52,040 nucleotides of DNA, taken from positions 1-52,040 of the forward strand of contig CAZYBR010000002.1 of the NCBI GenBank assembly GCA_964645905.1. Reading direction: 5' to 3'. Source of the DNA: an uncultured archaeon. GTDB lineage: Archaea > Aenigmatarchaeota > Aenigmatarchaeia > CG10238-14 > SCSR01. Positions 2,551-49,604 of the stretch are shown here, in pieces. The notes under the pieces are model-generated. The model was not told where the DNA came from and made no database searches. It saw only the letters and a program-made list of their open reading frames with translations. The first letter of the stretch is position 1, and every line of letters starts with the position of its first letter. Position numbers and translations under genes: made by a program.

Positions 2551-3231
2551 GTGATGAAAGTAGCCGTAGTTAGTTGCATACATGGTGACATCGAAAACCT
2601 GATGAAATTTCTGGATAAAACAGGAGCATTGAAACCAGATGTGCTTGTTTGTCCGGGAGATTTTACAGATTTTTCATTTCCTAAAGGTTTCAATAGGCTT
2701 GATATGGCAAAATTAATTTTAGAAGAAATGAAAGGCTTGAATGTGCCTATCCTTGCTGTTCCCGGAAGCTGGGATGGTGAATTGATAGGGTTCCTGAAGA
2801 AAGAAGGAATCAGTATACATGCTGAAGGAAGGATTATTGAAAACGTTGGGTTTTATGGGTATGGCGGAGCTAAAACTCCTTTCAACACACCATTCGAACC
2901 TAGTGAAGGAGAGATAGAATTAGGCCTTGAGAAGGCATTTAGTGAAGTGAAAAAAGCTAAAATTAAAATCCAGGTGACACATTCACCACCAAGCCACACA
3001 AAGTTAGATGTGATTGTCAGTGGTGCACATGTAGGATCGAACGCTGTTAGAAGCTTCATTGAGAACAGGCAGCCTAATGTTGCTGTATCCTCTCACATAC
3101 ATGAAAGCAGAGGTGTTGATGAGATAGGTAAAACGAAAATTATGAATTCTGGCCGTTTTCCAGAAGGTTATGTGGGCATGATTGAGATTCGCGATTCAGA
3201 AATAACAACGAAAGTAATTAGTCTGATATAA
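2551..3231 (+). CDS. Calcineurin-like metallophosphoesterase
   Basis: Motifs SCIHGD, CPGDFTD, VTHSPP and SSHIHES appear in the canonical order. The ATG at 2554 directly follows the GTG at 2551. Confidence 0.75.
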   Translation: MMKVAVVSCIHGDIENLMKFLDKTGALKPDVLVCPGDFTDFSFPKGFNRLDMAKLILEEMKGLNVPILAVPGSWDGELIGFLKKEGISIHAEGRIIENVGFYGYGGAKTPFNTPFEPSEGEIELGLEKAFSEVKKAKIKIQVTHSPPSHTKLDVIVSGAHVGSNAVRSFIENRQPNVAVSSHIHESRGVDEIGKTKIMNSGRFPEGYVGMIEIRDSEITTKVISLI

Positions 3232-3247
3232 CTTCTACACAATATAA

Positions 3248-3697
3248 ATGCACTTTAAAAGAATTCCATTAGTTTATTTTCCGCTCTCCAAGGAAACGTT
3301 TAAGATGACTGAAAATATTTTAGCAGAATCGATAGAAACGCAACAACAAGGAGATAATATAAAGGGTTTTGAGAATGCTATTGCCTTGGCAGAAAAGCTA
3401 GATTTCATGGACATCCAACTTCTCAGGAAATTTTATATGAATGGTAAGGAACAACCGTTCGATCTTCAACCTTATTGTTTCCCGCTTCTTTTCTCAGAAA
3501 TGAAAGTGAACCATAAACTTAAGATTGGGCTCGAGGCATTGAGGAAGAGACTGAATAACTTGGTCAGGCTCGGACTTTTATATAAGATAAACCAGTCTAA
3601 CCCTACAAATTACACACCATTCATAGACAAGAGGCAGTTTGTTCGTGCGGTTATCACAAAGTTTTTCGTTATCAACGGTTTAACTAAATTTCTATGA
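3248..3697 (+). CDS. Hypothetical protein, possible winged-helix DNA-binding protein
   Basis: 149-aa ORF. The C-terminal part (LEALRKRLNNLVRLGLLYKINQSNPTNYTP) looks like a recognition helix plus wing. An alternative start is at 3305 (MTENIL...). No family recognised. Confidence 0.4.
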   Translation: MHFKRIPLVYFPLSKETFKMTENILAESIETQQQGDNIKGFENAIALAEKLDFMDIQLLRKFYMNGKEQPFDLQPYCFPLLFSEMKVNHKLKIGLEALRKRLNNLVRLGLLYKINQSNPTNYTPFIDKRQFVRAVITKFFVINGLTKFL

Positions 3698-3988
3698 ACC
3701 TTCCAATAGATATTTGTGAACATTCAAACAATAATTCCGAATGTTTCCAATTAAATTCTCCGAGTATTCTCATACATTAGTCGAACTGTTCTATTCTAGA
3801 TTCAAGTAGTAGTATAAAATAATGGATTTAATAGAATAATGGAAAAAGGATTTATTATATTATTAAATATAACTACGTTATCATTATATTATTATGAATC
3901 TTATTTTTATTTTATATTTTAAGAAAAATTTTCATGTAGAACGCCTACCACAACTCTGCAAAGAAACATTATACATATGCGCAGAAAG

Positions 3989-3998
3989 TTTATAAAAA
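3989..3998 (+). promoter_or_regulatory. Putative BRE/TATA promoter of the wHTH-DP1-like-PolB operon
   Basis: AGAAAG followed by TTTATAAAAA lies about 30 nt upstream of the ATG at 4027. This is the geometry of an archaeal promoter giving a very short or absent leader. Confidence 0.4.
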
Positions 3999-4026
3999 TT
4001 AGTCCCCAAGTAAATTACTGGTAATT

Positions 4027-4284
4027 ATGAAACGCGGCAGACCAAACATAAGGCGTGATGTGCAACGCGAGATAATTTCATTTTTATCTGGCCGCGGAAC
4101 ACCAGTCACCATATCAGTAGTTTCTAAGGAATTATCAAAGACAATTAATAGAGAGGTAAGCTGGAACACTGTGCAAAAATATATGCAGGAACTGGTTGAG
4201 AGTGGGCAGTTACAGGCGATACAGCTGCCCCATTCCAAGCAGGAGAATAGGGACGGGCTAGTTGTATATACCTTAAAAAAGTGA
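4027..4284 (+). CDS. Small winged-helix DNA-binding protein
   Basis: 85 aa: a basic N-terminus (MKRGRPNIRRD), then an HTH-like core (VTISVVSKELSKTINREVSWNTVQKYMQELVESGQL) and a wing-like end (DGLVVYTLKK). It is the first gene of the polymerase operon, with an 18-nt spacer to the next gene. Confidence 0.5.
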   Translation: MKRGRPNIRRDVQREIISFLSGRGTPVTISVVSKELSKTINREVSWNTVQKYMQELVESGQLQAIQLPHSKQENRDGLVVYTLKK

Positions 4285-4302
4285 AATACCTTACCGTTTA
4301 AT

Positions 4303-5367
4303 ATGGATAGGAATATTATCCTTAAGCAGTTTATCTCCAGAGGTATCCAGATAAATAAACAAGCTCTAGACATGCTTTATGATAATCCGAACCTACTTGA
4401 TTCGGTGCTTAAGATAGACAATAACAATCTGCCTACAACCATAACACTTAACTTCCTGGAAACTTTGGAAGAAAAGCCCAAAGAGAAGACTACAGTGGTA
4501 AGAGAAGCAAAAACTGTAATGGATAGATACATCTTTCTCAGGGATGTACTTAGTGTGAAACCGGAATTAACTAATCTGATGTCGATAAGCAAAATAAACG
4601 AACGGACAAAGGATTTTTCAGTTATAGGAATCGTAGTCGAGAATAACGGGAAGCTCGTGCTCGAAGACACGACGGGGTATTATACATTTTCGATATCAAA
4701 CGACCTGGGCAGCCATATCCTCAAGGACGAAGTAATTGGAGCAGTCTGCCAGTTCAATAATAGTGTGATAGAAATTAAAAATGTGGTATATCCGGATATA
4801 CCGTTAAGGAAAGAAGCCACCAATACCAAGGCAGATATTGAGTGTATTTTCATATCGGATATACACATGGATTCACCGTCGCTTAACAGAGACATCTACA
4901 TAAATTTCATAGACTGGGTAAAATCCAAAAAAAATCTAATGATTTTCCTCGGTGGAGGCATATCAGAAAGGCAATCCGATATAGACAAATTAAAAGAGGA
5001 TATAGGAAATACAAATCTGTATTTTGCAGAAAATACAACGAAACAAATCGAAGAAGTGAAGATATTTTCCGGATACATACCATTCATACACCAATACTCC
5101 TCTAAATTAGGTACGACACTGGAGACCACCATCATGAACCTGCTGAAAAAAAGGAATCTAGACCCAACTTTCGGAAACAAAGTCTACAGCAATTCATTTT
5201 TGCTTAAGGATATACCTGATATACTGGTTCTAGGAGGAACCGGAACACCGTTATTGTTTAATTACAAAGGTACAACAGTGGTAACAAACGGTAGTTTCTT
5301 GGCAAAACCAGAATACTGGCAACTAAACCTCAAGACAAGAGAAACATTTAAAATCAACTTCTCATAA
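4303..5367 (+). CDS. DNA polymerase small (B) subunit, PolD-DP1-like, with degenerate phosphoesterase motifs
   Basis: 354 aa. It has a DP1-type N-terminal helical domain (ILKQFISRGIQINKQALDML) and a DP1-type OB fold (VIGIVVENNGKLVLEDTTGYYTFS...KDEVIGAVCQF...VVYPDIP). PDE motif I is present (FISDIHMD) and the conserved LLKKRNLDPTFG block matches canonical LL..RHLAP.YG. Motifs II-V are degenerate: LGGGISE for GDxxDG, AENTT for GNHD, LGGTGTP for GHxH. Confidence 0.7.
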   Translation: MDRNIILKQFISRGIQINKQALDMLYDNPNLLDSVLKIDNNNLPTTITLNFLETLEEKPKEKTTVVREAKTVMDRYIFLRDVLSVKPELTNLMSISKINERTKDFSVIGIVVENNGKLVLEDTTGYYTFSISNDLGSHILKDEVIGAVCQFNNSVIEIKNVVYPDIPLRKEATNTKADIECIFISDIHMDSPSLNRDIYINFIDWVKSKKNLMIFLGGGISERQSDIDKLKEDIGNTNLYFAENTTKQIEEVKIFSGYIPFIHQYSSKLGTTLETTIMNLLKKRNLDPTFGNKVYSNSFLLKDIPDILVLGGTGTPLLFNYKGTTVVTNGSFLAKPEYWQLNLKTRETFKINFS

Positions 5368-5374
5368 ACACTGT

Positions 5375-8086
5375 ATGGAGTTAGAATTCCAGCTTCTTGA
5401 TGCAGACTATGTGATGCTTGGAGGCAAGCCTCTGGTAAGGCTGTTCGGAATAAAGGACGGGAAATCCGTGTGCGTATTTGTAAAGGACTATTTCCCGTAT
5501 TTCTATGTACAACCAAAGCCTGAATTTATTCCCGACTTCGAGCACATGCTCAAGAAGAAGTTTCCTGGATTAGTGAGAAACGTTGAAACAGAATACAAAT
5601 TATTACCTATCGGATACCAGAAAGAAAAAACACTTCTGCTAAAAATATCCCTCAATGACCCGTCAAGGGTCCCCGAAGTCCGCGACACATTAAAGAAGGA
5701 TAAACTGGTGAATGAAATTTACGAGGCTGATATCCTTTTCAAATACCGTTACATGGCCGATAGGGGTATATCTGGATTCAAGTGGTTGAAAGTAAACGGA
5801 ACCCAAACAAGGACACAGACAGTCAAGACCGACATAACAGTGGACGCCAGTGAGATAAACGAAATAGAAAACTTGGAGAACAGCAGCATGAAATATCTTT
5901 CGTTGGATATCGAGACCATAGCAGAGGAAGGTGTACCGGACGCCAAGAAAGACATAATCGGCATGATAAGCCTGTCTTTTAGCCCAAGCTACAATGGAGA
6001 GAGTTCTCTTGTGCTCGTATCCAAGATATACCAGAAAGCTAACAATACGATAAAAGTATTTCCGAACGAGGAAGAGATGCTGAAAGAGTTTCTGAAAATC
6101 GTTGAAAACTATGACCCAGACGCGATTGTAGGCTATAACATAAATAATTTCGATTTCCCGTACATACTGACCAGATTACGCGAAAACAACCTTCCGTCGT
6201 TTCTCGGCAGGTGTAATCAAAAACCAGCAGTGTCAAGGAAGATAACCACTTATTATAAGAACACTGTGACAGGCAGGGTGATTGTAGACCCGTACGAACT
6301 CGTAAAGGAAGCGATACGGAAAGGAAACCTGCGCCTAAAACGATTGGGGCTAGGCGATGTCTCACGTGAATTATTGAACGACAAAAAAATGGATATAGAG
6401 CACGGGGAGATATTCGACCACTGGAACGGTGACGGGCAAAAAATGAGTAAGCTGGTCGAGTATGCAAGAAAAGATGCTGATCTGGCTCTCAGGCTCGTAT
6501 TGGAGAAAGGATTTCTCGATAAATTTTTTGAACTGAGCAAGGTATCAGGCATACTTCTGCAAGACTGCTTGGATGGGGGAGAGGCGCAGCGTGTGGAAAA
6601 CCTGTTTCTTAGAGAGTTCAACAAATATGGATATGTCTTACCCGGCAAACCTGCCGAAGACACGTATGGAGGGCAAGAAGTGCAGGAGTTGAAGGGCGCT
6701 CTCGTATTGGAACCGAAAACCGGGTTGCATACGGATCCGGTCGTCTATCTTGATTTTAAATCAATGTACCCTTCGATTTTTATTGCATACAATATCTGCC
6801 CTACAACTCTAGTCAGAAACAAAGATTTAGGCGTGGAGACAATCGAAACCCCATACGGAACCAAATTCGTTTCAAAAAATGTAAAAGAAGGCATCATGCC
6901 TATGATATTAAAAAAACTGATAGACGAAAGAGATAAGGTACGAAGCGAATCAAAGCATGCAGAAGACGGTAATGTCAAAAGATTGCTCGAAGCCAAGCAG
7001 GTCGCATTGAAAATAATGACAAATGCATTCTACGGATATACCGGATACCTGAGGGCAAGGCTTTATGTGATTGACATCGCAAGCACCATTACAGGTTGCG
7101 GTAGATTTCTGATAAACAAGACACGTGATATAATTGAATCTAATCCAGGCAGCGAAGTCATTTACGGTGATACGGATTCTATAATGGTTAAAATAAAGGA
7201 AGCCGACTTAGAAGCCGCATACAAGAAAGGAAGCGAGCTGGAGTCCATCGTCAACAACGAATTGAAAGGAATTATACAAATAAAAATCGAAAAGGTTTTC
7301 AAATCACTCCTCATTCTTTCTAAGAAAAGGTATTCTGGACTTGCTTACGAAAAGCATGGAAATGAGTGGAAAGAAGAAATGGTGATGAAGGGCATTGAGA
7401 CTGTAAGGCGTGATTGGTGCGACGCGGCTACAAAAATATTATTCGAAGTTCTAAACATCCTTTTAAGGGAACAGAATCCGAAGAAGGCTTTCGTATACGT
7501 GAAAGACTATCTGCAAAAACTGGAAAAAAATGAAGTATCACTTGACGAACTGCTCATAACAAAAAGCGTGTCAAAATCTATCAGCGCATACAAAGGAATG
7601 CAGCCGCACATAGAGCTTGTGAAAAAATTACAGAAAAGGAACGGCGAGGCGCCTGGAGTCGGCGATAGAGTAAGCTTTGTCATCGTCAAAGGACTGCAGT
7701 TATTGTCAGAGAGGGCTGAAGACCCTGAATATGTTAGGAAGAATAAAATTCCGATTGACTCGAAATATTATGTGGAAAACCAGATACTGCCTCCGCTAGA
7801 AAGAGTTTTTGAAGTTATAGGGTTCAGTAAGATAGAATTGCTTGGTATAGGGAGACAGACATTGCTTAAGGAGATGTTCAAGAATAACACAGGTCCTGCA
7901 AATGGAAACGGAACTATGGTCGAATGCCTAAATGATTCTGATGGAGTCGTTTGCGGCAAATGCAATAAAGCGTACAGGAGAATACCATTAGTCGGGAAAT
8001 GTCTGGACTGTGGAGGTGACGTGTTGTTCAGTTTTAATGGTGAAAAGTCATATTATAAGCAAGTACCTTCGAAGGAGATTAAATGA
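5375..8086 (+). CDS. polB: Family-B DNA polymerase with C-terminal zinc-ribbon extension
   Basis: 903 aa. Exo I is YLSLDIET, Exo II is NINNFDFPYIL, Exo III is YARKDADLALRL. Pol motif A is DFKSMYPSI, motif B is KIMTNAFYGYTGY, motif C is YGDTDS. All catalytic motifs are intact and no intein is evident. An extra tail of about 75 aa contains CGKC-x12-CLDC. Confidence 0.95.
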   Translation: MELEFQLLDADYVMLGGKPLVRLFGIKDGKSVCVFVKDYFPYFYVQPKPEFIPDFEHMLKKKFPGLVRNVETEYKLLPIGYQKEKTLLLKISLNDPSRVPEVRDTLKKDKLVNEIYEADILFKYRYMADRGISGFKWLKVNGTQTRTQTVKTDITVDASEINEIENLENSSMKYLSLDIETIAEEGVPDAKKDIIGMISLSFSPSYNGESSLVLVSKIYQKANNTIKVFPNEEEMLKEFLKIVENYDPDAIVGYNINNFDFPYILTRLRENNLPSFLGRCNQKPAVSRKITTYYKNTVTGRVIVDPYELVKEAIRKGNLRLKRLGLGDVSRELLNDKKMDIEHGEIFDHWNGDGQKMSKLVEYARKDADLALRLVLEKGFLDKFFELSKVSGILLQDCLDGGEAQRVENLFLREFNKYGYVLPGKPAEDTYGGQEVQELKGALVLEPKTGLHTDPVVYLDFKSMYPSIFIAYNICPTTLVRNKDLGVETIETPYGTKFVSKNVKEGIMPMILKKLIDERDKVRSESKHAEDGNVKRLLEAKQVALKIMTNAFYGYTGYLRARLYVIDIASTITGCGRFLINKTRDIIESNPGSEVIYGDTDSIMVKIKEADLEAAYKKGSELESIVNNELKGIIQIKIEKVFKSLLILSKKRYSGLAYEKHGNEWKEEMVMKGIETVRRDWCDAATKILFEVLNILLREQNPKKAFVYVKDYLQKLEKNEVSLDELLITKSVSKSISAYKGMQPHIELVKKLQKRNGEAPGVGDRVSFVIVKGLQLLSERAEDPEYVRKNKIPIDSKYYVENQILPPLERVFEVIGFSKIELLGIGRQTLLKEMFKNNTGPANGNGTMVECLNDSDGVVCGKCNKAYRRIPLVGKCLDCGGDVLFSFNGEKSYYKQVPSKEIK

Positions 8087-9105
8087 TAGCTCTAGTTATT
8101 GCATTATTCGTTTCTCTGATAACCACATTTTTAATAATACCACCATTGAGAAAATTCCTTTCCTCAGTTGGGATAGTCAGTCTAGATGTAAATAAAAAAA
8201 ATAGACCTGTGCTTCCGGCAAGCGGCGGAATTTTTATAGCCGTAGGCGTCTTAGCAGGAATACTTGTTTATACCGGATTGCAAACATTCATTTACGGAAA
8301 TTATGACATATCATTATTCCTTCTGACATCAGTTTCAAGCGTCATCATAGTAGCATTCATAGGAGTATTGGATGATTTGAATGTCAAATCGAAGCCAGTG
8401 CTAACACGCGATGGTAAAAATATTAAGGTGGGATTGATTCAATGGGTGAAAGCCCTACTGGTATTACCTGCAGCAATTCCGCTTATGGTCATAAATGTCA
8501 GTTCCACTACAATGTCACTTCCGTTCATAGGCGATGTTAACTTCGGTTTGTTATATCCCCTTTTGATTATACCATTTGGGGTTATAGTGTCATCCAATAT
8601 GGTGAACATGTTGGGCGGATACAACGGTATAGAAGCTGGGATGGGCGCGGTTTACACATTGGGATTGGGAGTATATGCTCTCACACATGGCAGTGAGGCA
8701 GCCGCGGTAGTCTTTCTTTCGACATTCGCAGCTTTACTGCCTTTCCTCAGATATAATTGGTATCCAGCAAAACTTTTACCGGGTGATAGTCTGACTTATC
8801 TACTTGGAGTAATTGTTGCGGTGGGTATTATAATTGGGCACATGCAGAGAGCTGGTATAGTAATGATGCTCCCTTTTATTTTTCAAGGAACGATAAAATT
8901 CTATTCTAAATTCAAGCTTGGTGAATTCGCATCTGATATAGGAATCGTACAAAAGGACGGCACTATCAAGCCGAGGTATGATAAAATCTATTCACTCATC
9001 CATGTTATTCTAAGATTAGGCAGATTCAAAGAATTCCAAGTAACTATAATTTTCATGGTAATTCAAGCGTTATTCGTTATACTACCTTTCATCTTATGGG
9101 GTTAA
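8083..9105 (+). CDS. aglH: Dolichyl-phosphate hexose/GlcNAc-1-phosphate transferase (MraY/WecA/Alg7 superfamily, AglH-like)
   Basis: 340 aa and polytopic. It has the VLDDLN motif and NMLGGYNGIEAG (the archaeal version of NxxDGxDGL). Its ATGA overlaps the polB stop. Confidence 0.7.
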   Translation: MIALVIALFVSLITTFLIIPPLRKFLSSVGIVSLDVNKKNRPVLPASGGIFIAVGVLAGILVYTGLQTFIYGNYDISLFLLTSVSSVIIVAFIGVLDDLNVKSKPVLTRDGKNIKVGLIQWVKALLVLPAAIPLMVINVSSTTMSLPFIGDVNFGLLYPLLIIPFGVIVSSNMVNMLGGYNGIEAGMGAVYTLGLGVYALTHGSEAAAVVFLSTFAALLPFLRYNWYPAKLLPGDSLTYLLGVIVAVGIIIGHMQRAGIVMMLPFIFQGTIKFYSKFKLGEFASDIGIVQKDGTIKPRYDKIYSLIHVILRLGRFKEFQVTIIFMVIQALFVILPFILWG

Positions 9106-23869: not shown

Positions 23870-26293
23870 CTATTTCAGGTTTTGGAACATGTCATTCAGG
23901 TTAGAATATGCAATATCTATCTTGTATCGGCCTCTATCTAAATATATCGATCTGAATAAATAATCAGCTCTTAGTATCTCTACTTCCGTTCTACCTGAGC
24001 AGGCTTCGTCATTACACTTCCACACATAAGCCTTCCAGTCAGGATACCATACCTCGCTCAATACAATGAGTCCCGGTTCTGACATGTTTGCAGATAGGGT
24101 TATCTCGTTAGGTGAATAATATCCAATTTCGGCTTCTGATATACCGTTCCAGTCATTTCCGCTGATAGTTACTTCAGGATTCTTCTCGAGAATAACAACA
24201 TTTCGTGGATCAAATCTCTCTTTCTGAATCTCATTCAATATTTCATTGCGGTTAGGGATAACCTTGAAATCATTTACTACGAAAACTCGTGGAAGGTGAT
24301 TATCGTTTTGGTATACATACACAGTTTGGTTGTAGTACAATGTTTTACGTATATCCAAGTTCACCACATCTTTTGAGAATAGCAAAGTAAACGGCTTGCT
24401 TCCGTCCAATTTTTCACTGGTCAAGACATATTTCACATTCAGTAAGTCAAGCATCTGCGGATATACAATTGTCCTAACAATAGGCTGTGATAGATCTCCT
24501 GTGAATGTCCTTCCGTCTATTGCTGTTATGTACTCTGCATACGACTTCAAATTCGGCGGGAGTATTCCATCAAGGGTCTCAATTCCATTCCTTGTGGCAA
24601 AGCGCGGTTCCATCGTCTTGTTTATGCCGAGAACTCTGAATTGATCGTTCTCGTATTCGCCGACAAGAAAATTTATAATTTCATTCTGCGGAAAGACTTT
24701 GTTTACAGGAGCCACATCAATATACTTCATGCCGAAAATCCAAAGATCAAACAGTACGATTAAAACCAATACCAACGTTATGTAATTCGGTTTGATTCTG
24801 AATTTGATTGCTGAAAGCAGAGCTATCGCGCTGGCAAGCAAAACGAAAAGTATCTTGTTTATATCCAAATTTATATAATTGTAAACTTTCGTGGCGATTG
24901 AATGCGCGTTGTCAGAATAATAATCCAATACATAGTTCCCGATTCTGTCAGATGACGAATCCAATTTACCTTTTATGATATTGTTCAAACTTGTTTCAGC
25001 AAATCCTATTGCAGTATCTCTGGTCAGATAGAATGCTATGCTAACTATGTATGTCAGTAATGCGAATATCAACAGAACTTTAACAATTCTATTTATATAT
25101 TTTCTGTTCCCAGATTTCAACAAGTCACTCAAATAATTGAGTCCGAATCCGGCTAGCAGTGATGCGGATAATGCGAATAGGAATAAAAACCTGGCAGGAT
25201 TTCTAACTATATCCAAGAACAGGATTATCTTATGCAGATACTTGAACAGCGGTGTGTACTGACCATAAGAAAACAGCAGTGCTGCGGCTGCGACGATTGC
25301 GAAGAAGATTACATACCTGTTCCTTCTGAATAAGAGAGCTAACGGTATTAACAACAATGGAAGGATGCCAAAATACGCTGACGATTCTTCAAATTGGTCA
25401 GATGCCCAGTAGGTGTTGTCAGTTCTACTTCCAAAGAAATCCGGCATCAACAAAGAGATTGTATACTCTGGCGTCACCGAGTAGGACGATGAATCCGAGG
25501 TCAGAAGCTCATAATCTATAGGCTGTCCTGCCTGTATGCTATACTTGGAAAATTCCAGAGACGGCAAAAATTGAAATGCAGATACCAGAAAACCTGTAAA
25601 GAACACTACTCCTATTAAGGAAAATCTTTTGAATAAATCTTTTCTTTTAAATTCCTTCGAAACAATCAAATCGTATACAAAATAGGCTCCTAGAAGATAT
25701 GCCGAATATATTGCGAACTGCAGGTAACCAGCCAATATCTGCAACCCAAGCACAATGCCTGTGAAGGTTCCATATTTGATGCTCCTGTTCTCGAGAGTTT
25801 TCAAGAATAATAGAAATAGCAGTGGCACCAATGCTATTACATCGATTGCAGGCTCATGCCCTATATTTATTCTACCGATGAAAACCCCGCCGAACATGAA
25901 AACTATAGAGGAAAAGAACGAGCTGTATTTGTCCAGCTTCAAATGCCGAGCAAGCAAGTAGATTGAAATTCCCGCAATGAATATGTCTATTATCAATTTG
26001 ATGCCAAATACAACATCTGTAGGGAAAACTAGAAACAGGAAATTAAGCGGATAGAACATTGCACTTAGTATATTTGCCAGAAATGGCGTACCAGAAGTCT
26101 CGTAATTGTTCCACATCGGCAGGTTTCCATATTTATGGACAGCATCAGAAAACAAGTATCTCCAGGAAGACAACATGTTCACTGTGTCCGGCGCAGGAAA
26201 TACCATTTCGTCAGGATTCAAGACTATTCTGTGGAAAAATACCAAAGTCAGGAGAAGCAACAATGTAGGTACGATAATATAATTCAATTTCAC
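23870..26293 (-). CDS. YfhO-family membrane glycosyltransferase (GT-C-like)
   Basis: 807 aa. The N-terminal region (YGNLPMWNNYETSGTPFLAN...) and the architecture of many TM helices plus a large C-terminal extracytoplasmic domain are typical of YfhO. Confidence 0.6.
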   Translation of the reverse strand: MKLNYIIVPTLLLLLTLVFFHRIVLNPDEMVFPAPDTVNMLSSWRYLFSDAVHKYGNLPMWNNYETSGTPFLANILSAMFYPLNFLFLVFPTDVVFGIKLIIDIFIAGISIYLLARHLKLDKYSSFFSSIVFMFGGVFIGRINIGHEPAIDVIALVPLLFLLFLKTLENRSIKYGTFTGIVLGLQILAGYLQFAIYSAYLLGAYFVYDLIVSKEFKRKDLFKRFSLIGVVFFTGFLVSAFQFLPSLEFSKYSIQAGQPIDYELLTSDSSSYSVTPEYTISLLMPDFFGSRTDNTYWASDQFEESSAYFGILPLLLIPLALLFRRNRYVIFFAIVAAAALLFSYGQYTPLFKYLHKIILFLDIVRNPARFLFLFALSASLLAGFGLNYLSDLLKSGNRKYINRIVKVLLIFALLTYIVSIAFYLTRDTAIGFAETSLNNIIKGKLDSSSDRIGNYVLDYYSDNAHSIATKVYNYINLDINKILFVLLASAIALLSAIKFRIKPNYITLVLVLIVLFDLWIFGMKYIDVAPVNKVFPQNEIINFLVGEYENDQFRVLGINKTMEPRFATRNGIETLDGILPPNLKSYAEYITAIDGRTFTGDLSQPIVRTIVYPQMLDLLNVKYVLTSEKLDGSKPFTLLFSKDVVNLDIRKTLYYNQTVYVYQNDNHLPRVFVVNDFKVIPNRNEILNEIQKERFDPRNVVILEKNPEVTISGNDWNGISEAEIGYYSPNEITLSANMSEPGLIVLSEVWYPDWKAYVWKCNDEACSGRTEVEILRADYLFRSIYLDRGRYKIDIAYSNLNDMFQNLK

Positions 26294-31782: not shown

Positions 31783-33972
31783 TCAGCTTGTAACAGTCGT
31801 AGTTGAAGTATCGTTATATAAAGTCGAATTGACTGTATGCTTTACCACATAGATATTTGAATTTGTGTAATTGTTCTGGATTATGATAAAGACCGATTCA
31901 GAATTATTCAATGTAGTCTGCTGAATTGAAGAAATATTCTGTTCTCCTGTGTCAATGCTCCAAGATATGTTTGTCAGGCCCAAGTTATTTATCGTAACTA
32001 TTTCGGATATCGTATTATTCTGATTTTCGAACAGGGTCAGATGTCTTAGGATTTCTATCACCTTTACAAGTATCCTGTCCGCAAATGAAGTCGTAAAAGT
32101 ATTGTTGTAAGCTGTTATCTGCGGTTTGTTTATTCCTTGTGCAGTATAATTGTTGACTATCAACACTAAGACAGATTCCCCAGATGTTATATTAGTGACA
32201 TTATTGCTTACCACTGAAGGATTTGTTGCATTCCAATTGATGCTCTGGTTTTCTGGCCAGTTGTTCTTTATGAAGAATTGCAGAAGTCGGTTTGTAGCCG
32301 TCAGATTGATGCTGTCAAAGTCATTTATCCTTATGGCTTCCAGTGTCAGCGATTCATTGTAATAATCTGTAATGCTGCCTGAAGTTATGTTGATTATCAC
32401 TTCCTTTCTGCCGTCAGTAGAATAGTTTATCGTCTGCGACACAAGCGATGTCCCATTTGTGCCTAATGTCGATGTAGTGTTTGTGAACGTCTGTCCGTCG
32501 CTTGCTATGTACCATTCCACAGCTGAAGGCATCCAGTAGTTTTTTATTGTAAAGTTGACCATGCGTGTGTTCTCGTCTATCGAAGTGCTGTTGTAGTTTT
32601 CTATCTTTATTCCCTTGATTTCAAATTCTATCGATTCGGTATCATTGCCGTCAACCGAAGTTGTAGTGCACGAGAATGTCTTTATTCCAGGCGATGAATA
32701 GTTGTTGCTCATTGTATCTACCCTGCTGGCATTTCCTGTCAAGGTGAACGGTCCTCCAGTCAATCCTTCGCTGCACGACCAGTTAATGTTCTGTGAAGTG
32801 TCGTTCATGTTGCCCAGTATCCCAAGCTTGAATGTTATGTTCGATGTGTTCATGTTGCTTATTGTAAGATTACTTATAACAGCGCCGAATTTGATTGTAA
32901 CATTCTCAAAATCAATAGAGTTTATTGAAGACTTGCCGGTTACATTGATCCGATAACTTCCGGCATTGTTATAATTATAACCCGCTATTACCCAAATAGT
33001 CTCATTGCTTGTCAGATTGAAAGCTACGGTCGAGTTGACCTTGTTCGAACTTTCAAAGTCCACGCTCCAGTTCGCATTTGTTATTGTAGAGTTCTTTTCA
33101 TTTGAAAGGAAGAAGCTTATTATTCTTTGCTTTGCATTCGAATAAAGCTCTTTCAATTTGTTTACATCCGTTCCTGCATCGTTTGTTATTATCTTTGATG
33201 GTGCATGTACAGGACTACTGCCGTAGACAAACTTTGTAGTGTTTACATTATCCCCGACTATCTTGAGTATGCTTCCTATCTCGTTGTAGGAATAAACGTA
33301 ATTGATTCCTCCTATGCTTGCATTCGTTAATCTGTCCAAGAAATCGTAACTCATATTATACAGCCTGCCGTTGGCAGAATCATTTATTCTTATTATGTTG
33401 CCTATTGCATCGTATGAGTAGCTCAAGTTCTGGAGGTTCCCTGTCTTGATTTCGTTTATCCTGCCTTTATTGTCATAACTGAATTCTGACAGCTTGCTGC
33501 TATTGTATGTCCTGTTCGAAGGATTGCCGAAAGCATCGTGGGACGTGGAATTTACAAAACCGATTATTTTATTAATCTTGCTTTGATTGTCATATGTATA
33601 ATTTAGGTTTGTGCCAGGTGTGAATACTTGTTTCGCTATCCTGCTCATCGAATCATAATGAATAGTTCTGGCGAAGACAATACCGTCTATAATTTTTGTC
33701 TCATTCGTCAGTCTAAGTTTATCGTCATAGCCGTATTTGTAAGTAGAATTACCGAAAGTTATATTTGCTAAAGTCCCTTCGTATTGGTCGTCGTACGAAT
33801 ATGTTATGTTTGTTGTCGTCCCATTCTTGATTAAGATTCTGTTTAGTGAATCGTATGTTATATTCACCTGGTTTGTCGCAGAATTATAAGTAATGTCTTG
33901 AGTAGACGCTGATGTTATTTGTACAATGATTACAAGCGATAAAATTATAATTAATGGTAGTCTAATTTTCAT
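31783..33972 (-). CDS. Secreted surface protein: signal peptide + YD repeats + sequon-rich Ig-like repeat region
   Basis: Signal peptide MKIRLPLIIILSLVIIVQITSAS. At least six YD-type repeats (YSYDDQ, YGYDDKLRL, YTYDNQSKI, FSYDNKGRI, YSYDAIGNI, MSYDFLDRL). These are followed by about 480 aa of repeated beta-rich modules with very many N-x-S/T sequons. Confidence 0.7.
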   Translation of the reverse strand: MKIRLPLIIILSLVIIVQITSASTQDITYNSATNQVNITYDSLNRILIKNGTTTNITYSYDDQYEGTLANITFGNSTYKYGYDDKLRLTNETKIIDGIVFARTIHYDSMSRIAKQVFTPGTNLNYTYDNQSKINKIIGFVNSTSHDAFGNPSNRTYNSSKLSEFSYDNKGRINEIKTGNLQNLSYSYDAIGNIIRINDSANGRLYNMSYDFLDRLTNASIGGINYVYSYNEIGSILKIVGDNVNTTKFVYGSSPVHAPSKIITNDAGTDVNKLKELYSNAKQRIISFFLSNEKNSTITNANWSVDFESSNKVNSTVAFNLTSNETIWVIAGYNYNNAGSYRINVTGKSSINSIDFENVTIKFGAVISNLTISNMNTSNITFKLGILGNMNDTSQNINWSCSEGLTGGPFTLTGNASRVDTMSNNYSSPGIKTFSCTTTSVDGNDTESIEFEIKGIKIENYNSTSIDENTRMVNFTIKNYWMPSAVEWYIASDGQTFTNTTSTLGTNGTSLVSQTINYSTDGRKEVIINITSGSITDYYNESLTLEAIRINDFDSINLTATNRLLQFFIKNNWPENQSINWNATNPSVVSNNVTNITSGESVLVLIVNNYTAQGINKPQITAYNNTFTTSFADRILVKVIEILRHLTLFENQNNTISEIVTINNLGLTNISWSIDTGEQNISSIQQTTLNNSESVFIIIQNNYTNSNIYVVKHTVNSTLYNDTSTTTVTS

Positions 33973-33989
33973 AGAATCCTCTTGAAGTA

Positions 33990-34180
33990 ATTCTCATCAA
34001 TTCCTTGAACGGAGTGTAGATTGTAGTGTTGGCAGAATCGTTGCGCATTATCTTGATTCTTATTCCGAACGGGTCATAGGTGTAGTTCTCAAGTTGCGGT
34101 GACACCACTGAACTTACATTACGAATAATTGTCAACTGATTCAATTCATTGTATTCACGGTAATAACCATCGCTAGTAAC
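33990..34180 (-). pseudogene. Orphan rhs-core fragment (duplicate of 35907..36097)
   Basis: 191 nt with 152/191 identical positions by my ungapped hand alignment, including a 34-nt perfect run, to an internal part of the large RHS gene. It encodes SDGYYREYNELNQLTIIRN...YTPFKELMRI, then diverges and stops. Confidence 0.7.
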
Positions 34181-34232
34181 TTTTAACCCAATCTTTTTAA
34201 CTAGTCTAAACCAAATAATATTTGTTGACGCA

Positions 34233-34436
34233 ATGAAAGAAGACTCTAAGAAACTCACCATTGCAGAACAAATAGTATTGGTGGCATTTGCTGTTGGTGG
34301 ATATATGATACTGAAAAATATAGCCGAATTATATTTAGGAATTACTGGTGTTTTGGTATGGGTTATTTCAGGCGCTATTGGTGGTGCTATAGGTTGGTTA
34401 GTTTTGAAGGTATTCAAAACGATAAAGAAAAAGTGA
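34233..34436 (+). CDS. Small two-TM glycine-zipper membrane protein
   Basis: 67 aa: charged ends (MKEDSKK... / ...KTIKKK) and two hydrophobic helices (IVLVAFAVGGYMIL; GVLVWVISGAIGGAIGWLVL). It is more protein-like than the antisense 181-aa ORF, whose N-terminus is a Pro-rich mirror of the Gly codons. Confidence 0.5.
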   Translation: MKEDSKKLTIAEQIVLVAFAVGGYMILKNIAELYLGITGVLVWVISGAIGGAIGWLVLKVFKTIKKK

Positions 34437-34506
34437 TAAGATTTATTCTCAGTTATAAAGTTCTTTTCGTTTGAGTCACTTGATAAATTGAATAAAATTT
34501 GTTTCA

Positions 34507-34842
34507 TCAGTTAGAACCTCCATACCATTCACAAAACTCATCAACATATGTAGAAAAAACTTTCTTTTGTTTTTCGTTTTTAAATCTGGCAGAAATAATA
34601 ACTGCATTATGAGTAAAAATTAAATCTATATCAAAATTTACATTTTTGTAGTTCTCTAATATATCTTCAAACTTTGTTATATCGGTTTTGTAAAATTTAT
34701 CATCTGTAAGATATAAATTATAACTGAAACCACATTTTGACAGTAAATTGCCTAAAAATTCTCTTAACTTCTTATTCTTTTCTATAGTAATAGCCAATTT
34801 ATTTTTATCACGCTTCATCCCTAATATTTTAGGTTTTTCCAC
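34507..34842 (-). CDS. Putative immunity protein of the RHS toxin
   Basis: 111 aa, cytoplasmic-looking. Its GTG start is preceded by GGAGGTG at 5-nt spacing. It overlaps the last 14 nt of the toxin gene, which is the position typical of polymorphic-toxin immunity genes. No family recognised. Confidence 0.55.
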   Translation of the reverse strand: MEKPKILGMKRDKNKLAITIEKNKKLREFLGNLLSKCGFSYNLYLTDDKFYKTDITKFEDILENYKNVNFDIDLIFTHNAVIISARFKNEKQKKVFSTYVDEFCEWYGGSN

Positions 34843-37800
34843 TTAACCACCTCCAAATATTTTCTAATATGTTTGATTGTCCGTTTGATTGTTCTATAGT
34901 ACGGCTATATATTTCCGTTCGATACTCGCCAGTTTCTGGATACGTTCTAACAGTTCCATGGATCTTAACAGGACCGCTTTTATCCACGACAATTGTATCA
35001 TGATAATCTCCACTAAATGTTTTACCTTGTGGTGTAGTCATAGGTTTAGGTAATATGTCCGGATTAGTACTCATGGCTAGTGGACTACTTTTACTTACTT
35101 TGAAGTCAGATGGCTTATTAGAAATAGTTGATACAGATGTAAACATTTTATTCACACCGTATCCTAATGCCGCTCCTCCACCCCCGCCAAGCCCTTCTAT
35201 GAGCAAATCTTTAGGCTGTCCTAATCCTTGAGTTAAGGGCATTCCCGTTATGAAATTCCCACCAGCTATACTAGTTTGTCCACCAGCAATTCCCGCACCT
35301 GCTCCAGATAAAACTGTGGCGCCGAATCCAGTTCCAAATACAGCAGTACCTGCACCGAATGTTAACCCACCTATACCACCAGCGACAGCACTTACACCTA
35401 CTTCACTCCAACTAACTTTGCTCAAATCACCATTATTATGCCAAAGCTGTACCCCAAGATCAATTCCACCACCGATAAGTGCTCCTGCAGCTGCGGCTAT
35501 GCACATCGGACAATTGCCGCTCGAATCTGTGTATTTGTAAGGATTATTTAATCCATACGAAAATCTATTCAAACCTTGAGGATTGTAGAAGCTTTGATAA
35601 CTGTCTGATTGTGTAAATATTCCTAAACACGGGTTGTAATACCTCGCACCGTAATAATACTCACACGAAAAGTCTTTGAACTGACTTGTATAAAGTTTTA
35701 CATCAGCCGTTCCACCACCAAGCAACTCCCCATAAGGACTATAGAACGTATTCTCAACTACATTCCCATTCTGGTCTGTTATCAATGATGTGGAGCCTAG
35801 ATGGTCGGAATGGTAATAATATTTAGAAGCGTCTGGATTCACTCGTGCAACTAGTGTATTTCCGTCATAGATGTAAGTGAAATCATAATTTCCTGACGAG
35901 TTTACTATTCGCATTAATTCTTTGAACGGCGTGTAGATTGTAGTGTTGACTGTATCGTTGCGCATTATCTTGATTCTCTGTCCGAATGGGTCGTATGTAT
36001 AATTTTCCAACTGTGGCGATGTTATTGTAGAACCATTACGAATAATTGTCAACTGATTCAATTCATTATACTCACGATAATAACCGTCACCTGTTACTAA
36101 ATTCCCTCCACCATTCTGCACCTGCCTAATCAAGTTTCCAATCAAGTCATACGTGTAACTCCAATTTCCCAAATCTGGGTCTTGCAATGATATTCTTCTA
36201 CCGAGAGAGTCGTATCCAAATATAAAATTATTACCCAAAGCATCTGTAATTTTAATCAGATTGTCTGCTGTGTCATAATTATAATTTGTAGTGTATATGT
36301 CAATCTCGAAATTGAAATGCAGAACAGGATTATTATTGTATTCAAGAACATTAATTATTCTTCCATATGAATCGGTTACATATGTCTTCATGTGACCGTT
36401 CTCGTCATATGCTGTAACATTCCAATGATTGAAAGTAATATTTGTTGTGTTCCCGTCTGGATTTCTCACCGAGATTACACGTGATAAAGTATCATAGGTA
36501 TAATTGATGAAATCGGAATTATGAGTTGTTGTTAATCCTGCTGATGTTGGAGCAAAGTAAGGATTGCTCTCTGCTCTAACCCTTTCCATTCCGTCATAAA
36601 AGAGATTCTTCACAATTTGTTGGTTACCATCACTAGGTTTCTTAAATTGAATAAAATTACCCAACCCATCATAGTAAAAGTAAGTATCAAAGGTCTTGTT
36701 GGCTGTTGTTCTTTGCGAAATCTTAATCGATTCAGGCGCGGTTCCGTCAAAAGAATAATTGTAACTCTTTGTAGGCAGTTCATTCGAATCAAACGGCTGT
36801 ATCTCTTTAATCAATCTCCCGAATGTGTCATAAACGAAGTAAGTGTATATCCCATTCTGCTTCTTCCACAGCAAATTTCCAGTCCCTAAATCATACTTAA
36901 AGTCGGTCTGGTGATCCAATGCATTTGTTATCTTGTCGACGAAAGTGAATGTAGTATCTCTTAGTCCATATGTGTAACTGGTTTCACGATAAAGTGGATC
37001 TGTAACACGAATAACATTACCAAACCTGTCATATTCAAACCTTGTAATAGGATTAGCTCCTTTATCATTCCAATTCTCGACAGCAGTGACATCCCCTTTG
37101 GTAGCATTCCTGCCGTAAACCTGACCATCATAATGATACTTCGTTTCGCGAACCTTCTGATTATTAGAATCAAACAACAAATACCAGCTTAACTTGTCGA
37201 CAATCCATGCACTCGTATTGATAACATAAGAATAATTCTCGTACTTCTCGTCGCCTGTGGCATTCACATCGCCGAGGAAACTGCGGTAAATAACATTACC
37301 GAAACTATCATAAGAGTAAGTCACATTAGTTACCTTGGGATTGCCGACAGCACCATCGTGCAGATAATTAGTCTGAGAGACAGTGAAAACCTTGAAATAG
37401 CCAGCACTTGCATTAGTGTAATTGAACAGAGCTTCATCCCTTGTGAAAATATTACCAGAAGAATTGTAGATTGTAGTATTGTATTCCTTACCTTTCAATA
37501 TCTCGTCCTGATAAAATCTATGCGATATGATTGAACTGTCCGGCAAAGTTTCATTGACAATAGAGAATCCCCTGAAATCTTTTTCCTCGTAATCATACTT
37601 GCCGTCTGAGTAATTGTAGGAATAATTAAAGAAAGATGTGAAAGGCCCAGTAAGGGAATTGTTGTAGCTGACATTCTTTACAACAAACATGTTGAATCCG
37701 ATGTCGGAGACGGAGTCATTGCCGGCATTGTCAAAGTTGGTAGAATTAGCATAAGACACGGAAATAATCCTTCCAAGCTCTGTGGTGATGCTTCTAAGCA

Positions 37801-39655: not shown

Positions 39656-39821
39656 TTTTACTTTAGGATGTTCTGGAACATTCGCCTTGTGGAGATACGG
39701 CTTGTAAGAATCATCGACAGCTGCAAGAACCGACTGGATATTTATTATAAATAACGATAAGGATACGGTTATAATTATAAAAACTTTTTTATTTGATGTA
39801 ATAGCACTGATATGCTCACCA

Positions 39822-41929: not shown

Positions 41930-41987
41930 ATTTCAACCGTATTTAAAACTTTTGGTTCATATTACTAATAGCTTGAAAGGTAGTACA

Positions 41988-42863
41988 ATGAACGTATCAA
42001 TAATCGGAAGCGGTGTTGTAGGAAGCGTAGTCGGAGAAGGCTTGACTAAGCTAGGCAATAAGGTAATTTTTCATGACATAGATCCATCAAGAATCGAGAA
42101 AGCAAAGAACAGGGGATTCGGCGCCACAACAGATATAGAATACGCCATAAATAATTCAGAAATCTCCTTTATCTGCGTCCCTTCACCTACAGAAAACGGG
42201 AAAATAAACCTGACTTACATTACATCTGCAATAGAAAATGTTGGAAGAGCATTGAAGAACAAAAGAGGCTATCATGTCATTGTTGTTAAAAGCACTGTGA
42301 CACCCCAGACAACTGAGAGCGTGGTAATACCCGCCTTAGAGAAGGCATCTGGTAGGAAAGCCGGACAGGATTTCGGAGTATGCATGAACCCTGAGTTCCT
42401 GACAGAAATCGCAAATACATGGACAGATGAAAGCACTCTAGCAAGAGGATTCTTCGATGAAGAAAGGATAGTTATCGGTGAATTTGATAAAAAATCAGGA
42501 GAAATGCTGGCTAATTTGTATGCAAAACTTGCGAAACCAGTTTTCAGAACGGACCTGAAGACAGCAGAATTCATAAAATATGCAGCCAATTGCGCATTGG
42601 CAAGCAGGGTATCCTACTGGAATGAAATAGCAGCAATTGGTAAAAGATTAGGGATAGACAGCCAGAAAGTAGCAGACATAGTCGCGCTGGATAAGAGAAT
42701 CGGAAAGTACGGATCCATAATAACTGGAAAAGGATTCCAGGGCAAGTGTCTTCCAAAGGACATAGAAGCATTTATTTCATTCGCAGAGCAGCACATTGAT
42801 CCTGCATTATTGAAAGCCGTAAAGAAAGTCAATGATGATATCCAAAAAACCTTGCGAGAATAA
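41988..42863 (+). CDS. UDP-glucose/GDP-mannose dehydrogenase-family protein lacking the C-terminal UDP-binding domain
   Basis: N-terminal Rossmann motif (VSIIGSGVVGS), a central domain (KYAANCALASRVSYWNEIAAIGKRLGID) and a catalytic-Cys motif (GFQGKCLPKD). The protein ends about 45 aa after the Cys. The ATG at 41988 is preferred over the TTG at 41952. Confidence 0.65.
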   Translation: MNVSIIGSGVVGSVVGEGLTKLGNKVIFHDIDPSRIEKAKNRGFGATTDIEYAINNSEISFICVPSPTENGKINLTYITSAIENVGRALKNKRGYHVIVVKSTVTPQTTESVVIPALEKASGRKAGQDFGVCMNPEFLTEIANTWTDESTLARGFFDEERIVIGEFDKKSGEMLANLYAKLAKPVFRTDLKTAEFIKYAANCALASRVSYWNEIAAIGKRLGIDSQKVADIVALDKRIGKYGSIITGKGFQGKCLPKDIEAFISFAEQHIDPALLKAVKKVNDDIQKTLRE

Positions 42864-42865
42864 TC

Positions 42866-43726: not shown

Positions 43727-43729
43727 TAA

Positions 43730-44113
43730 TCATCGCTTTGTTGAGATGAAATAAACACCAGAAATTATCATCGCTATTCCGAGAAACCTGAAGATTGTCA
43801 TATTTTCCTTGAATATCATCCAGGCAAGCAACGATGTCACAATATAACTTATCCCGATCATCGGATACGCATAACTCAATTCCGCCCTAGACAGGACCAC
43901 AAGCCATACAACAGATGCCAGAACATACAAACCTACACCAACGATTATGAAAGGATTGAAAATTACTTGGAACAATGCAGGAGGTCGTATTATCTGGGAC
44001 AGGCTTATTTCCCCTACAATTCTCATACCGTTCTTCATGAATAATTGTCCGCCTACGCTCAGCATGACACTGAGAAGTATCAAAATAAGTATAGCTTTTG
44101 CAGGTTTGTCCAT
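43730..44113 (-). CDS. Small 4-TM SMR/EamA-like transporter (ArnE/ArnF-like lipid-linked sugar flippase candidate)
   Basis: 127 aa with four hydrophobic helices. It is a full-length paralogue of the 50045..50404 product (shared GQL.MK.GM...GEI.L, LY.....W..VLS..ELS..YP..G..Y). Confidence 0.55.
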   Translation of the reverse strand: MDKPAKAILILILLSVMLSVGGQLFMKNGMRIVGEISLSQIIRPPALFQVIFNPFIIVGVGLYVLASVVWLVVLSRAELSYAYPMIGISYIVTSLLAWMIFKENMTIFRFLGIAMIISGVYFISTKR

Positions 44114-44144
44114 GAAGTGTGTTGACTTTTAATCTTAATTAATC

Positions 44145-44870: not shown

Positions 44871-44936
44871 CCCAGTCACCTTAACCTTTAGATGAAATGA
44901 AATGTATTTATGCTTTTTAAACAAAGGAATTTTACG

Positions 44937-46407: not shown

Positions 46408-46424
46408 TCCACCTAATTATTATT

Positions 46425-49600: not shown

Positions 49601-49604
49601 TAGA

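Follow-up and report, generated by a model that had tools for sequence, protein, structure and literature searches.

Group B6 of the archaeal family-B DNA polymerases (PolBs) includes enzymes from Aenigmarchaeota whose C-terminal domains (CTDs) carry metal-binding motifs (Kazlauskas et al. 2020, PMC7544198). One type, B6-aenigma1, has one CTD motif, which is most similar to a zinc motif of DP2, the large subunit of the archaeal family-D polymerase PolD. The same authors defined a clade of inactive DP1 proteins (Aenigma_GB_GCA_002789635-like), found DP2 to be absent from most Aenigmarchaeota, and proposed that a B6 PolB, possibly derived from a mobile genetic element, replaced DP2 and that eukaryotic polymerase B-subunits may derive from such a lineage (PMC7544198). 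A 2025 study reported that Aenigmatarchaeota lack DP2 yet retain DP1, and used AlphaFold3 and yeast two-hybrid assays to show that DP1 binds a PolB-DP2CTD fusion in both Aenigmatarchaeota and Baldrarchaeia; it also reassigned the B6-aenigma2 sequences to Baldrarchaeia contamination (PMC12680538). Published trees disagree on whether these proteins are sister to the eukaryotic B-subunits (PMC7544198, PMC12680538). Here we analysed a 52,040-nt stretch of archaeal DNA (hereafter, the window) in which a three-gene unit at positions 4027-8086 encodes a small winged helix-turn-helix (wHTH) protein, a nuclease-dead DP1-like protein (DP1L) and a PolB.

The DP1L-PolB pair of the window represents the same system as B6-aenigma1 PolB with inactive DP1 (PMC7544198), or PolB-DP2CTD with DP1 (PMC12680538). 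Both come from the same phylum and share a Delta-like PolB, one Zn-III-like C4 motif, a dead phosphoesterase (PDE) domain and the lack of a nearby DP2. The window DP1L differs in being divergent and in belonging to the most decayed subclade, with two of seven metal ligands and no detection by Pfam. The pairing is already known, its significance having been recognised in print in 2020 and the interaction tested in 2025, so that the window adds a further, more decayed member rather than a discovery. What our analysis contributes beyond the literature is modest: conservation at the level of the operon, an asymmetry in the evolutionary rate of DP1L, an origin-proximal ancestry, and the replacement of cdc6 and origin recognition boxes (ORBs) by winged-helix genes. 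In this respect, neither the text nor the supplement of PMC7544198 contains "operon", "adjacent" or "neighbo(u)r". In the main text of PMC12680538, "operon" and "neighbourhood" occur once each but refer to RFC and priL-priS genes rather than to DP1L and PolB; its FigShare neighbourhood file may show the DP1L-PolB adjacency.

The unit consists of three open reading frames (ORFs) on the + strand, encoding the wHTH protein (4027-4284, 85 aa), DP1L (4303-5367, 354 aa) and PolB (5375-8086, 903 aa), with intergenic gaps of 18 and 7 nt. An initial annotation of this DNA had given the same three genes and spacing, and we reproduced the positions exactly. A BRE/TATA-like element, GAAAGTTTATAAAAA, lies at 3984-3998 on the + strand; it ends 28 nt 5' of the wHTH start codon, occurs as a single exact copy in the window, and is a putative promoter. 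Because gaps of 18 and 7 nt are too short for a comparable promoter element before DP1L or PolB, the three genes probably form one transcription unit. No DP2, second DP1 or Orc1/Cdc6 gene was found within the window.

DP1L was identified as a DP1 homologue by NCBIfam models, profile searches and structure prediction. The 354-aa protein matched PolD small-subunit models (NCBIfam NF003118, E 9e-32) at 110.6 bits, short of the curated equivalog cut-off for active DP1 of 445 bits, while a Pfam scan returned no match, including to DNA_pol_E_B (PF04042). When a DP1L family profile was searched against the PDB, solved DP1 chains were recovered at E 5e-34 as two aligned blocks with the motif II/III region left out between them; Pol31 was matched weakly (E 0.007). 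The AlphaFold2 model of DP1L (predicted local distance difference test score (pLDDT) 89.5, predicted template modelling score 0.75) had only DP1 and eukaryotic B-subunits among its 50 best PDB matches in Foldseek. The top match was P. abyssi DP1 (E 9e-20, template modelling (TM) score 0.65-0.72); of the eukaryotic proteins, human Pol δ p50 (2e-15) ranked first, ahead of the Pol ε B-subunit (8e-14), Pol31 and the Pol α B-subunit. By structure match, DP1L thus has the oligonucleotide-binding (OB) fold and inactive PDE fold that characterise eukaryotic polymerase B-subunits.

All domains of DP1 are represented in DP1L. The N-terminal helical domain (aa 1-56, 4303-4470) comprises model helices at residues 3-12, 19-27, 29-36 and 49-55, and in a search with an N-terminal hidden Markov model (HMM) its first ~55 residues, beginning at residue 1, were aligned to the N-termini of canonical DP1 proteins (E 1e-8 to 1e-5). 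The OB-fold region (aa ~104-162, 4612-4788) is a five-strand block in the AlphaFold2 model and aligned both with the DP1 OB fold in the PDB profile search and with DP1 and p50 in Foldseek. The degenerate PDE domain (aa ~178-354, 4834-5364) was delimited by alignment to canonical DP1. It contains a conserved LLKKRNLDPTFG block (5140-5175) that aligns with "LLKxRHLxPT" of solved DP1; in the family alignment, R284 and P288 are invariant and L280, K282 and K283 are conserved in at least 90% of members.

To assess the active site, we scored the metal-ligand columns of DP1L by alignment to canonical DP1, against the ligands of P. abyssi DP1 (D363, H365, D407, N453, H500, H563 and H565, with H451 as proton donor; PMC4996933). 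DP1L retains two of the seven ligands, D186 and H188, both in the surviving motif I FISDIHMD (4849-4872), and the proton-donor histidine is gone. The remaining ligand and proton-donor columns hold G219, two gaps, Y258, G312 and G314. In motif II, Asp is replaced by G219 (within GGG) and followed by a clade-wide deletion of ~19 aa; the motif III region has been lost throughout the clade with no substitute; the motif IV His is replaced by Tyr or Ser; and the motif V GHxH has become GGTGT. The initial annotation had described a DP1 homologue that keeps the N-terminal domain, the OB fold and the LLKKRNLDPTFG block, with motif I as the sole survivor in the PDE domain. Profile searching and ligand scoring, which it had called for, recovered each of these features. 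Its account of the motif replacements held for motifs II and V, whereas the proposed conversion of GNHD to "AENTT" did not, since this region is deleted clade-wide.

The loss of ligands is graded across the family. Of 47 clade members, one has the motif III Asn and none has the proton-donor His or the second Asp of motif II. About a dozen deeper members hold six of the seven ligands, and the window protein stands at the decayed end. A homologue search recovered 58 proteins, whose named close relatives are all from Candidatus Aenigmat(arch)aeota; near-identical strain copies aside, DP1L is at most 46-47% identical to any other public sequence. The deeper members still match PF04042 or PF12850 in precomputed annotations, while the most decayed proteins (window 4303-5367 and P0002, P0016, P0023 and P0028) have no Pfam match and are named "hypothetical protein" at NCBI. 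Near-identical DNA to the window segment 3924-8367 was found in Logan assemblies of SRR12113383 and SRR12113385 (loci L061 and L062), with 17 mismatches in 4444 nt and 3 mismatches in 3734 nt, and the public copy of DP1L carries a single substitution relative to that of the window (L317S).

In contrast to DP1L, the 903-aa PolB appears catalytically intact. It is a family-B polymerase (Pfam DNA_pol_B 6e-118, exo1 6e-38) whose best sequence relative in the PDB is the catalytic subunit of human Pol δ (3e-109), ahead of the Thermococcales PolBs. This ranking, based on sequence matches in the PDB, agrees with the "Delta-like/B6" assignment in the literature. The 3'-5' exonuclease domain (aa 114-320, 5714-6334) has an intact ExoI DIE at aa 178-180 and an intact ExoII at 254; ExoIII (YxxxD at aa 363), just past the domain, is also intact. 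The polymerase domain (aa 395-815, 6557-7819) contains motif A (DFKSMYPS), motif B (KxxxNxxYG), motif C (YGDTDS) and KKRY. Conservation of all these motifs across 44 orthologues is 90% or higher.

The key physical link between PolB and DP1L, which the initial annotation did not mention, appears to be a zinc module of DP2 type at the C-terminus of PolB. A single CxxC-x13-CxxC motif is present in the PolB CTD, forming the C4 module CGKCNKAYRRIPLVGKCLDCGG (aa 860-881, 7952-8017), which is homologous to Zn-III of DP2 and is the predicted DP1L-binding element. PolB residues 858-886 matched the C-terminal end of the DP2 models TIGR00354 (positions 1014-1042 of 1096, E 2e-6) and NF003103 (1e-5). A tblastn search with an outgroup DP2, whose Zn-III sequence is CVDCNEKYRRVPLSGKCEKCGG, gave 56% identity over 27 aa at 7952-8032. 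The pattern C..CN...RR.PL.GKC..CGG was kept in all 44 complete PolB orthologues. Beyond the module, 22 residues remain in PolB, compared with ~60 in DP2.

Between the thumb and the zinc module, PolB has a PCNA-interacting protein (PIP)-box-like motif, QTLLKEMF (aa 828-835, 7856-7879). The position of this motif (GxG[KR]Qxx[LM]x[ED]ΦΦ) is conserved in the 44 orthologues, and a relaxed PIP pattern, with hydrophobic residues permitted at the last two positions, occurs in 16 of them. The PIP box of human p125 lies at the same position, in the interval between thumb and CysA (PMC7048817). The motif may bind PCNA.

We then examined how widely the arrangement is conserved. An alignment-based scan of species-representative genomes yielded 60 loci, nearly all from metagenome-assembled genomes of Candidatus Aenigmatarchaeota, while a scan of the genome collection with the single 354-aa sequence as query found nothing. 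Together with the named homologues, these loci point to an Aenigmatarchaeota origin of the window. DP1L is followed directly, on the same strand, by a zinc-module PolB in ~50 of the 60 loci, with a median gap of 9 nt. This adjacency is far above chance and, given its presence in ~50 species-level genomes, is not peculiar to this genome. The initial annotation's overall reading, a nuclease-dead B-subunit paired with an intact PolB and with no DP2 adjacent, is supported by the ligand loss, the PolB motifs and the adjacency; no DP2 lies anywhere in the window, and the reading itself had already been published.

The 85-aa gene lies directly 5' of DP1L in ~35 loci (median gap 16 nt), the 149-aa gene upstream of it is syntenic in ~30, and a 226-aa phosphoesterase gene further upstream is syntenic in ~40, including loci with the ancestral arrangement described below. 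Among these five syntenic genes, DP1L was the least conserved in all 18 comparable loci. Median identity to the window protein was 34% for DP1L, compared with 58% for the phosphoesterase, 63% for the 149-aa gene product, 51% for the wHTH protein and 58% for the PolB core. The DP1L ORF was nevertheless full-length and intact in every locus whose contig covers it, and in the family alignment 16 columns are invariant and 36 nearly so, with such columns in the N-terminal domain, the OB fold and the C-terminal blocks alike. A subunit that evolves fastest and yet stays intact fits the pattern expected of a scaffold released from catalytic constraint.

Compared with characterised polymerases, the window pair shares features with both PolD and the eukaryotic enzymes. 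DP1L has the same N-terminal domain, OB and PDE folds as DP1 of archaeal PolD (P. abyssi; PDB 5IHE, 6T8H, 8PPT), the PolB zinc module corresponds to DP2 Zn-III, and the order from small to catalytic subunit beside cdc6, seen in related loci, is that of the PolD genes in the outgroup locus L044. Unlike in PolD, the catalytic subunit is of family B and not a double-psi β-barrel DP2, and its CTD is truncated past the zinc module. Eukaryotic Pol δ (p125 and p50), like Pol α, ε and ζ with their B-subunits, likewise combines a family-B catalytic subunit with a nuclease-dead B-subunit of the DP1 family. The window PolB is closest to p125, p50 is the best non-DP1 structural match of DP1L, and the order of thumb, PIP-like motif and zinc module is common to both enzymes. 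In contrast, Pol δ has CysA and CysB (Fe-S) where the window PolB has one zinc module, no helical CTD bundle is evident, and no homologues of p66 or p12 were identified for the window module. The Asgard Baldrarchaeia encode a PolB3-DP2CTD fusion together with DP1, and have also lost DP2, kept DP1 and given a yeast two-hybrid interaction (PMC12680538). Their CTD, however, is full-length like those of DP2 and eukaryotes, whereas that of Aenigmatarchaeota, a DPANN lineage, is shorter and "degenerate" (PMC12680538). With its single zinc module and 22 residues thereafter, the window CTD is less eukaryote-like than the CTDs of Pol α, δ and ε or that of Baldrarchaeia PolB3.

Taken together, the module is very probably a replicative polymerase, a two-subunit Pol δ-like enzyme in which PolB takes the place of the catalytic part of DP2. 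PolB would supply synthesis, and proofreading would have to come from its exonuclease domain because DP1L, unlike DP1 of PolD, lacks five of the seven ligands and the proton donor. DP1L, presumably no longer a nuclease, would serve as a structural B-subunit. By analogy with the yeast two-hybrid result for another Aenigmatarchaeota pair (PMC12680538), its OB/PDE body may dock onto the Zn-III-type module of PolB. A tether to GINS/CMG is probably provided by its N-terminal domain, which is the role of DP1N in PolD (PMC9023282). PCNA held by the PIP-like motif would provide processivity, and the 85-aa protein, encoded first in the unit and carrying an AT-hook-like motif and a winged helix, is most likely a DNA-binding protein dedicated to regulating the operon.

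Several points weigh against this interpretation. The PolB CTD is short, with one zinc module and 22 residues beyond it, and the CTD of Aenigmatarchaeota has been termed a "degenerate DP2CTD" with a different predicted structure (PMC12680538). The proposed DP1L-PolB interface of the window pair is transferred from another Aenigmatarchaeota pair, the lack of DP2 was observed within 52 kb of the genome, and GINS and PCNA are presumed to be encoded in it. Deeper members of the DP1L family with six of seven ligands may have residual metal binding, the window protein excepted. Co-transcription is suggested by gene spacing and one promoter-like element, and the regulatory role of the wHTH protein by fold and motif resemblance at borderline Foldseek E-values.

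The related loci also allowed us to reconstruct a probable history of the operon. In deeper-branching loci, a ~400-aa Orc1/Cdc6 gene lies directly 5' of DP1L, often after the same Hjc and phosphoesterase genes. Directly 5' of cdc6 in L038, L046, L047, L049, L050 and L051, TCCACGTGAAACAAGGGGGT occurs three times in forward and one to three times in reverse orientation, with clusters at, for example, L038:2770-3085, L049:4125-4330 and L051:4136-4325. These repeats match the archaeal ORB consensus. They imply that the polymerase operon was probably origin-proximal in Aenigmatarchaeota of the ancestral state. Weaker ORB-like matches were also observed just 3' of PolB in L039, L040, L048 and L052, and 3' of DP2 in L044. 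In the window itself, a search for an ORB element or origin at the locus found none.

The outgroup locus L044 has the order cdc6, canonical DP1, DP2. The DP1L-PolB order beside orc1/cdc6 and ORB mirrors this arrangement, which suggests that PolB displaced DP2 in situ and kept the DP2 zinc module. In a neighbour-joining PolB tree, all loci with the 85-aa gene formed one clade nested in a grade of cdc6-state loci, pointing to a single replacement of cdc6 and ORB by two winged-helix genes in the subclade of the window. The likely order of events is thus oriC-cdc6-DP1-DP2, then oriC-cdc6-DP1L-PolB(Zn-III), then wHTH-DP1L-PolB. This replacement appears to have been merely positional, because no relationship of the winged-helix genes to Orc1/Cdc6 is detectable. 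As the 85-aa and 149-aa genes occupy the same slot as cdc6, we considered them as possible Orc1/Cdc6 fragments and rejected this: hhalign gave probabilities of 0.2% and 0.1%, and their HMMs missed the outgroup Cdc6 ORFs.

The 85-aa protein begins with MKRGRP, which has an AT-hook-like RGRP core, followed by the wHTH. Its AlphaFold2 model (pLDDT 88.6) has an H-H-H-E-E layout, that is, the three helices and β-hairpin of a winged helix, supporting the fold proposed in the initial annotation. Invariant positions in the family are M1, R3, G4, R5, S45-W46-N47-T48, K51, Y52 and H69-S70-K71, with SWNT…KY located in the recognition helix. The best Foldseek matches were regulators of PadR, Phr, Fur and RTP type at borderline E-values of ~1e-3 (TM 0.6-0.73 to PadR, Phr and Fur). 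Neither Pfam nor NCBIfam gave a match over the cut-off, and a PDB profile search gave only E-values of at least 0.4. The family is very small: one search gave 93 clusters, and another found 94 representatives among 1.84 billion proteins. NCBI locus tags place its gene beside that of DP1L.

In most related loci, the element GAAAGTT[T/C]ATAAAA sits 14-51 nt 5' of the orthologous wHTH start, and k-mer enrichment over the orthologous upstream regions recovered this promoter-like element and nothing else. The fold and the conserved motifs are consistent with the wHTH protein being most likely a DNA-binding regulator of its own operon. A further feature was observed at the same site in sister loci: three to four tandem 21-bp repeats, TTTTATGAACTTTCrrAaAaT, are present at L011:5559-5637, L013:5567-5637 and L020:5549-5626 and at the equivalent position in L010. 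Each repeat holds the reverse complement of the BRE/TATA-like element and faces the forward copy over an AT-rich spacer of ~75-128 nt 5' of the wHTH gene. Their arrangement is suggestive of an operator array or of iterons, and they were found neither in the window nor in its closest relatives, L001 and L003. Separately, a second, paralogous wHTH copy of ~80 aa (HMM E 1e-8 to 1e-10) lies between the 149-aa and 85-aa genes in some loci (L009:898-1125, L023:4822-5070, L024-L026:5721-5951 and L029-L032 at ~5445-5698), whereas the window has one copy.

Two other roles for the 85-aa protein deserve consideration. If cdc6 and ORB were replaced in a single event by the two winged-helix genes, the 85-aa protein could be a DNA-tethering component of the replicase or a new origin-proximal recognition factor. 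We regard this as unlikely; the wHTH upstream site in sister loci holds the 21-bp iteron-like arrays of the promoter-like element. Quite unlikely, too, is that the protein is a stoichiometric third polymerase subunit rather than a regulator, comparable to the winged helix of p66/Pol32 that binds p50. In PDB 3e0j, the N-terminal part of p66 is a winged helix bound to p50, which would favour such a role. So would the fact that within one clade the gene always lies directly 5' of DP1L with a fixed length of 85 aa, and that the protein, from a tiny and lineage-specific family, is as conserved as the other neighbours and far above DP1L. On the other hand, its top 50 Foldseek matches contained no polymerase accessory subunit and were instead DNA-binding regulators (PadR, Phr, Fur, RTP), and the invariant AT-hook-like RGRP N-terminus and conserved recognition helix point to DNA binding. 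When considered specifically as a p66/Pol32 N-terminal winged helix, the protein was rejected, since no such domain appeared in those 50 matches or in the sequence searches. Furthermore, the same DP1L-PolB pair occurs without the 85-aa gene in the deeper half of the clade, so the protein is not required for the enzyme. We therefore retain the role of operon regulator as the most likely one.

The history of the locus also bears on whether the module is chromosomal at all. That it came from a mobile element or virus, and encodes an accessory polymerase instead of a chromosomal replicase, seems very unlikely to us. Such a source was suggested for B6 PolB by Kazlauskas et al. (PMC7544198), and the window does contain RHS/Tc-toxin-like genes and a variable glycan island. 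However, the synteny CBS-Hjc-phosphoesterase-[cdc6 or wHTH genes]-DP1L-PolB is stable phylum-wide on contigs of up to 0.8 Mb, and the ancestral-state loci adjoin ORB repeats and orc1/cdc6. We saw no integrase, terminal repeats or capsid genes close to the locus, and GC content is unremarkable.

It is highly improbable that DP1L works with a canonical DP2 encoded elsewhere, as in a PolD holoenzyme, and that its adjacency to PolB is merely historical. The DP2 search was limited to the 52-kb window, Supplementary Fig. S16 of PMC7544198 aligns DP2 from Aenigmarchaeota among others, and the divergent DP1 groups in that study were inactive, without an active DP2, or co-occurring with Zn-motif PolBs. 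Nevertheless, Aenigmatarchaeota are reported to lack DP2 while retaining DP1 (PMC12680538), the Zn-III module that docks DP1 sits on PolB itself, the DP1L and PolB genes stay tightly adjacent across ~50 species, and a PolD whose sole proofreading subunit is dead would be without proofreading. Equally remote is the idea that DP1L is a functionless, decaying relic carried in the operon: it is the fastest-evolving gene of the block, lies below Pfam detection and shows progressive decay of its catalytic motifs over the clade, but it is intact in all covering loci, keeps its 16 invariant and 36 nearly invariant columns, is modelled at pLDDT 89.5, and another clade member has a published yeast two-hybrid interaction (PMC12680538).

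A two-subunit Pol δ-like enzyme of this kind would provide a living model of how the eukaryotic replicative polymerases, in which an inactivated DP1-type B-subunit is docked on a zinc CTD, could have arisen from PolD. The stepwise history, from ORB-cdc6-DP1-DP2 through ORB-cdc6-DP1L-PolB to wHTH-DP1L-PolB, offers concrete, testable material for reconstituting the enzyme. Because Pfam misses the most degenerate DP1L proteins, that of the window included, and public records label them "hypothetical protein", automated and domain-based surveys of replication genes will under-count this subunit.

The genes 5' of the unit are a LigT-like gene, two CBS-domain genes, an Hjc-type Holliday-junction resolvase gene (108 aa, 2196-2522, - strand; Pfam Hjc 3.2e-7), the gene for an intact 226-aa calcineurin-type metallophosphoesterase (2551-3231, + strand; Pfam Metallophos 3.6e-16) and a 149-aa winged-helix-like gene (3248-3697, + strand). 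Hjc-like ORFs also precede the phosphoesterase gene in L039, L043 and L052. We asked whether the 226-aa phosphoesterase could be a DP1 PDE domain that was moved away from DP1 and makes up for the dead one in DP1L, and rejected this, as its only solved relative was aq_1956 (E 6.7e-5), which is not a DP1. Being aq_1956-like and syntenic in ancestral-state loci, beside a PolB with its own exonuclease, it appears to be an old neighbour and not a partner. The second winged-helix-like protein, of 149 aa, gave no family in the Pfam scan; its family profile alignment begins at residue 20 of the window ORF, and its true start is probably M20 at 3305. The two winged-helix genes are separated by a 329-nt AT-rich non-coding gap (3698-4026) with weak repeats, in which the 13-nt ATAAAATAATGGA occurs twice at 17-nt spacing, along with 15-nt inverted arms. 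Rfam and tRNA scans of the window returned no matches.

On the 3' side, PolB and a GT4 glycosyltransferase gene (8083-9105) share an ATGA at 8083-8086, in which the stop codon of the former overlaps the start codon of the latter, with a GGAG ~8 nt upstream, so that in this genome the replication operon runs directly into a glycan-biosynthesis island. This GT4 gene was syntenic in none of the 60 related loci. The surface-glycan island is very large (9107-31319 and 41952-51995) and includes five PMT_2-family transferases, GT1, GT2 and Alg13/Alg14-like transferases, a flippase, rmlA/B/C/D-like genes, a DegT aminotransferase, a thiamine pyrophosphate-dependent E1 α/β pair and a C-methyltransferase, as well as an 807-aa ORF without a Pfam match (23870-26293, - strand). 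Between its two parts, a Tc-toxin/RHS-like polymorphic toxin cassette lies on the - strand at 31783-41726. It encodes a 729-aa RHS-repeat protein (31783-33972), a 181-aa ORF with no Pfam match (33962-34507), a 1608-aa protein with SpvB, TcdB_toxin_midN, FG-GAP and RHS repeats (34829-39655) and a 634-aa LamG-domain protein (39822-41726), a cassette that is unusual for a small DPANN-type archaeon.

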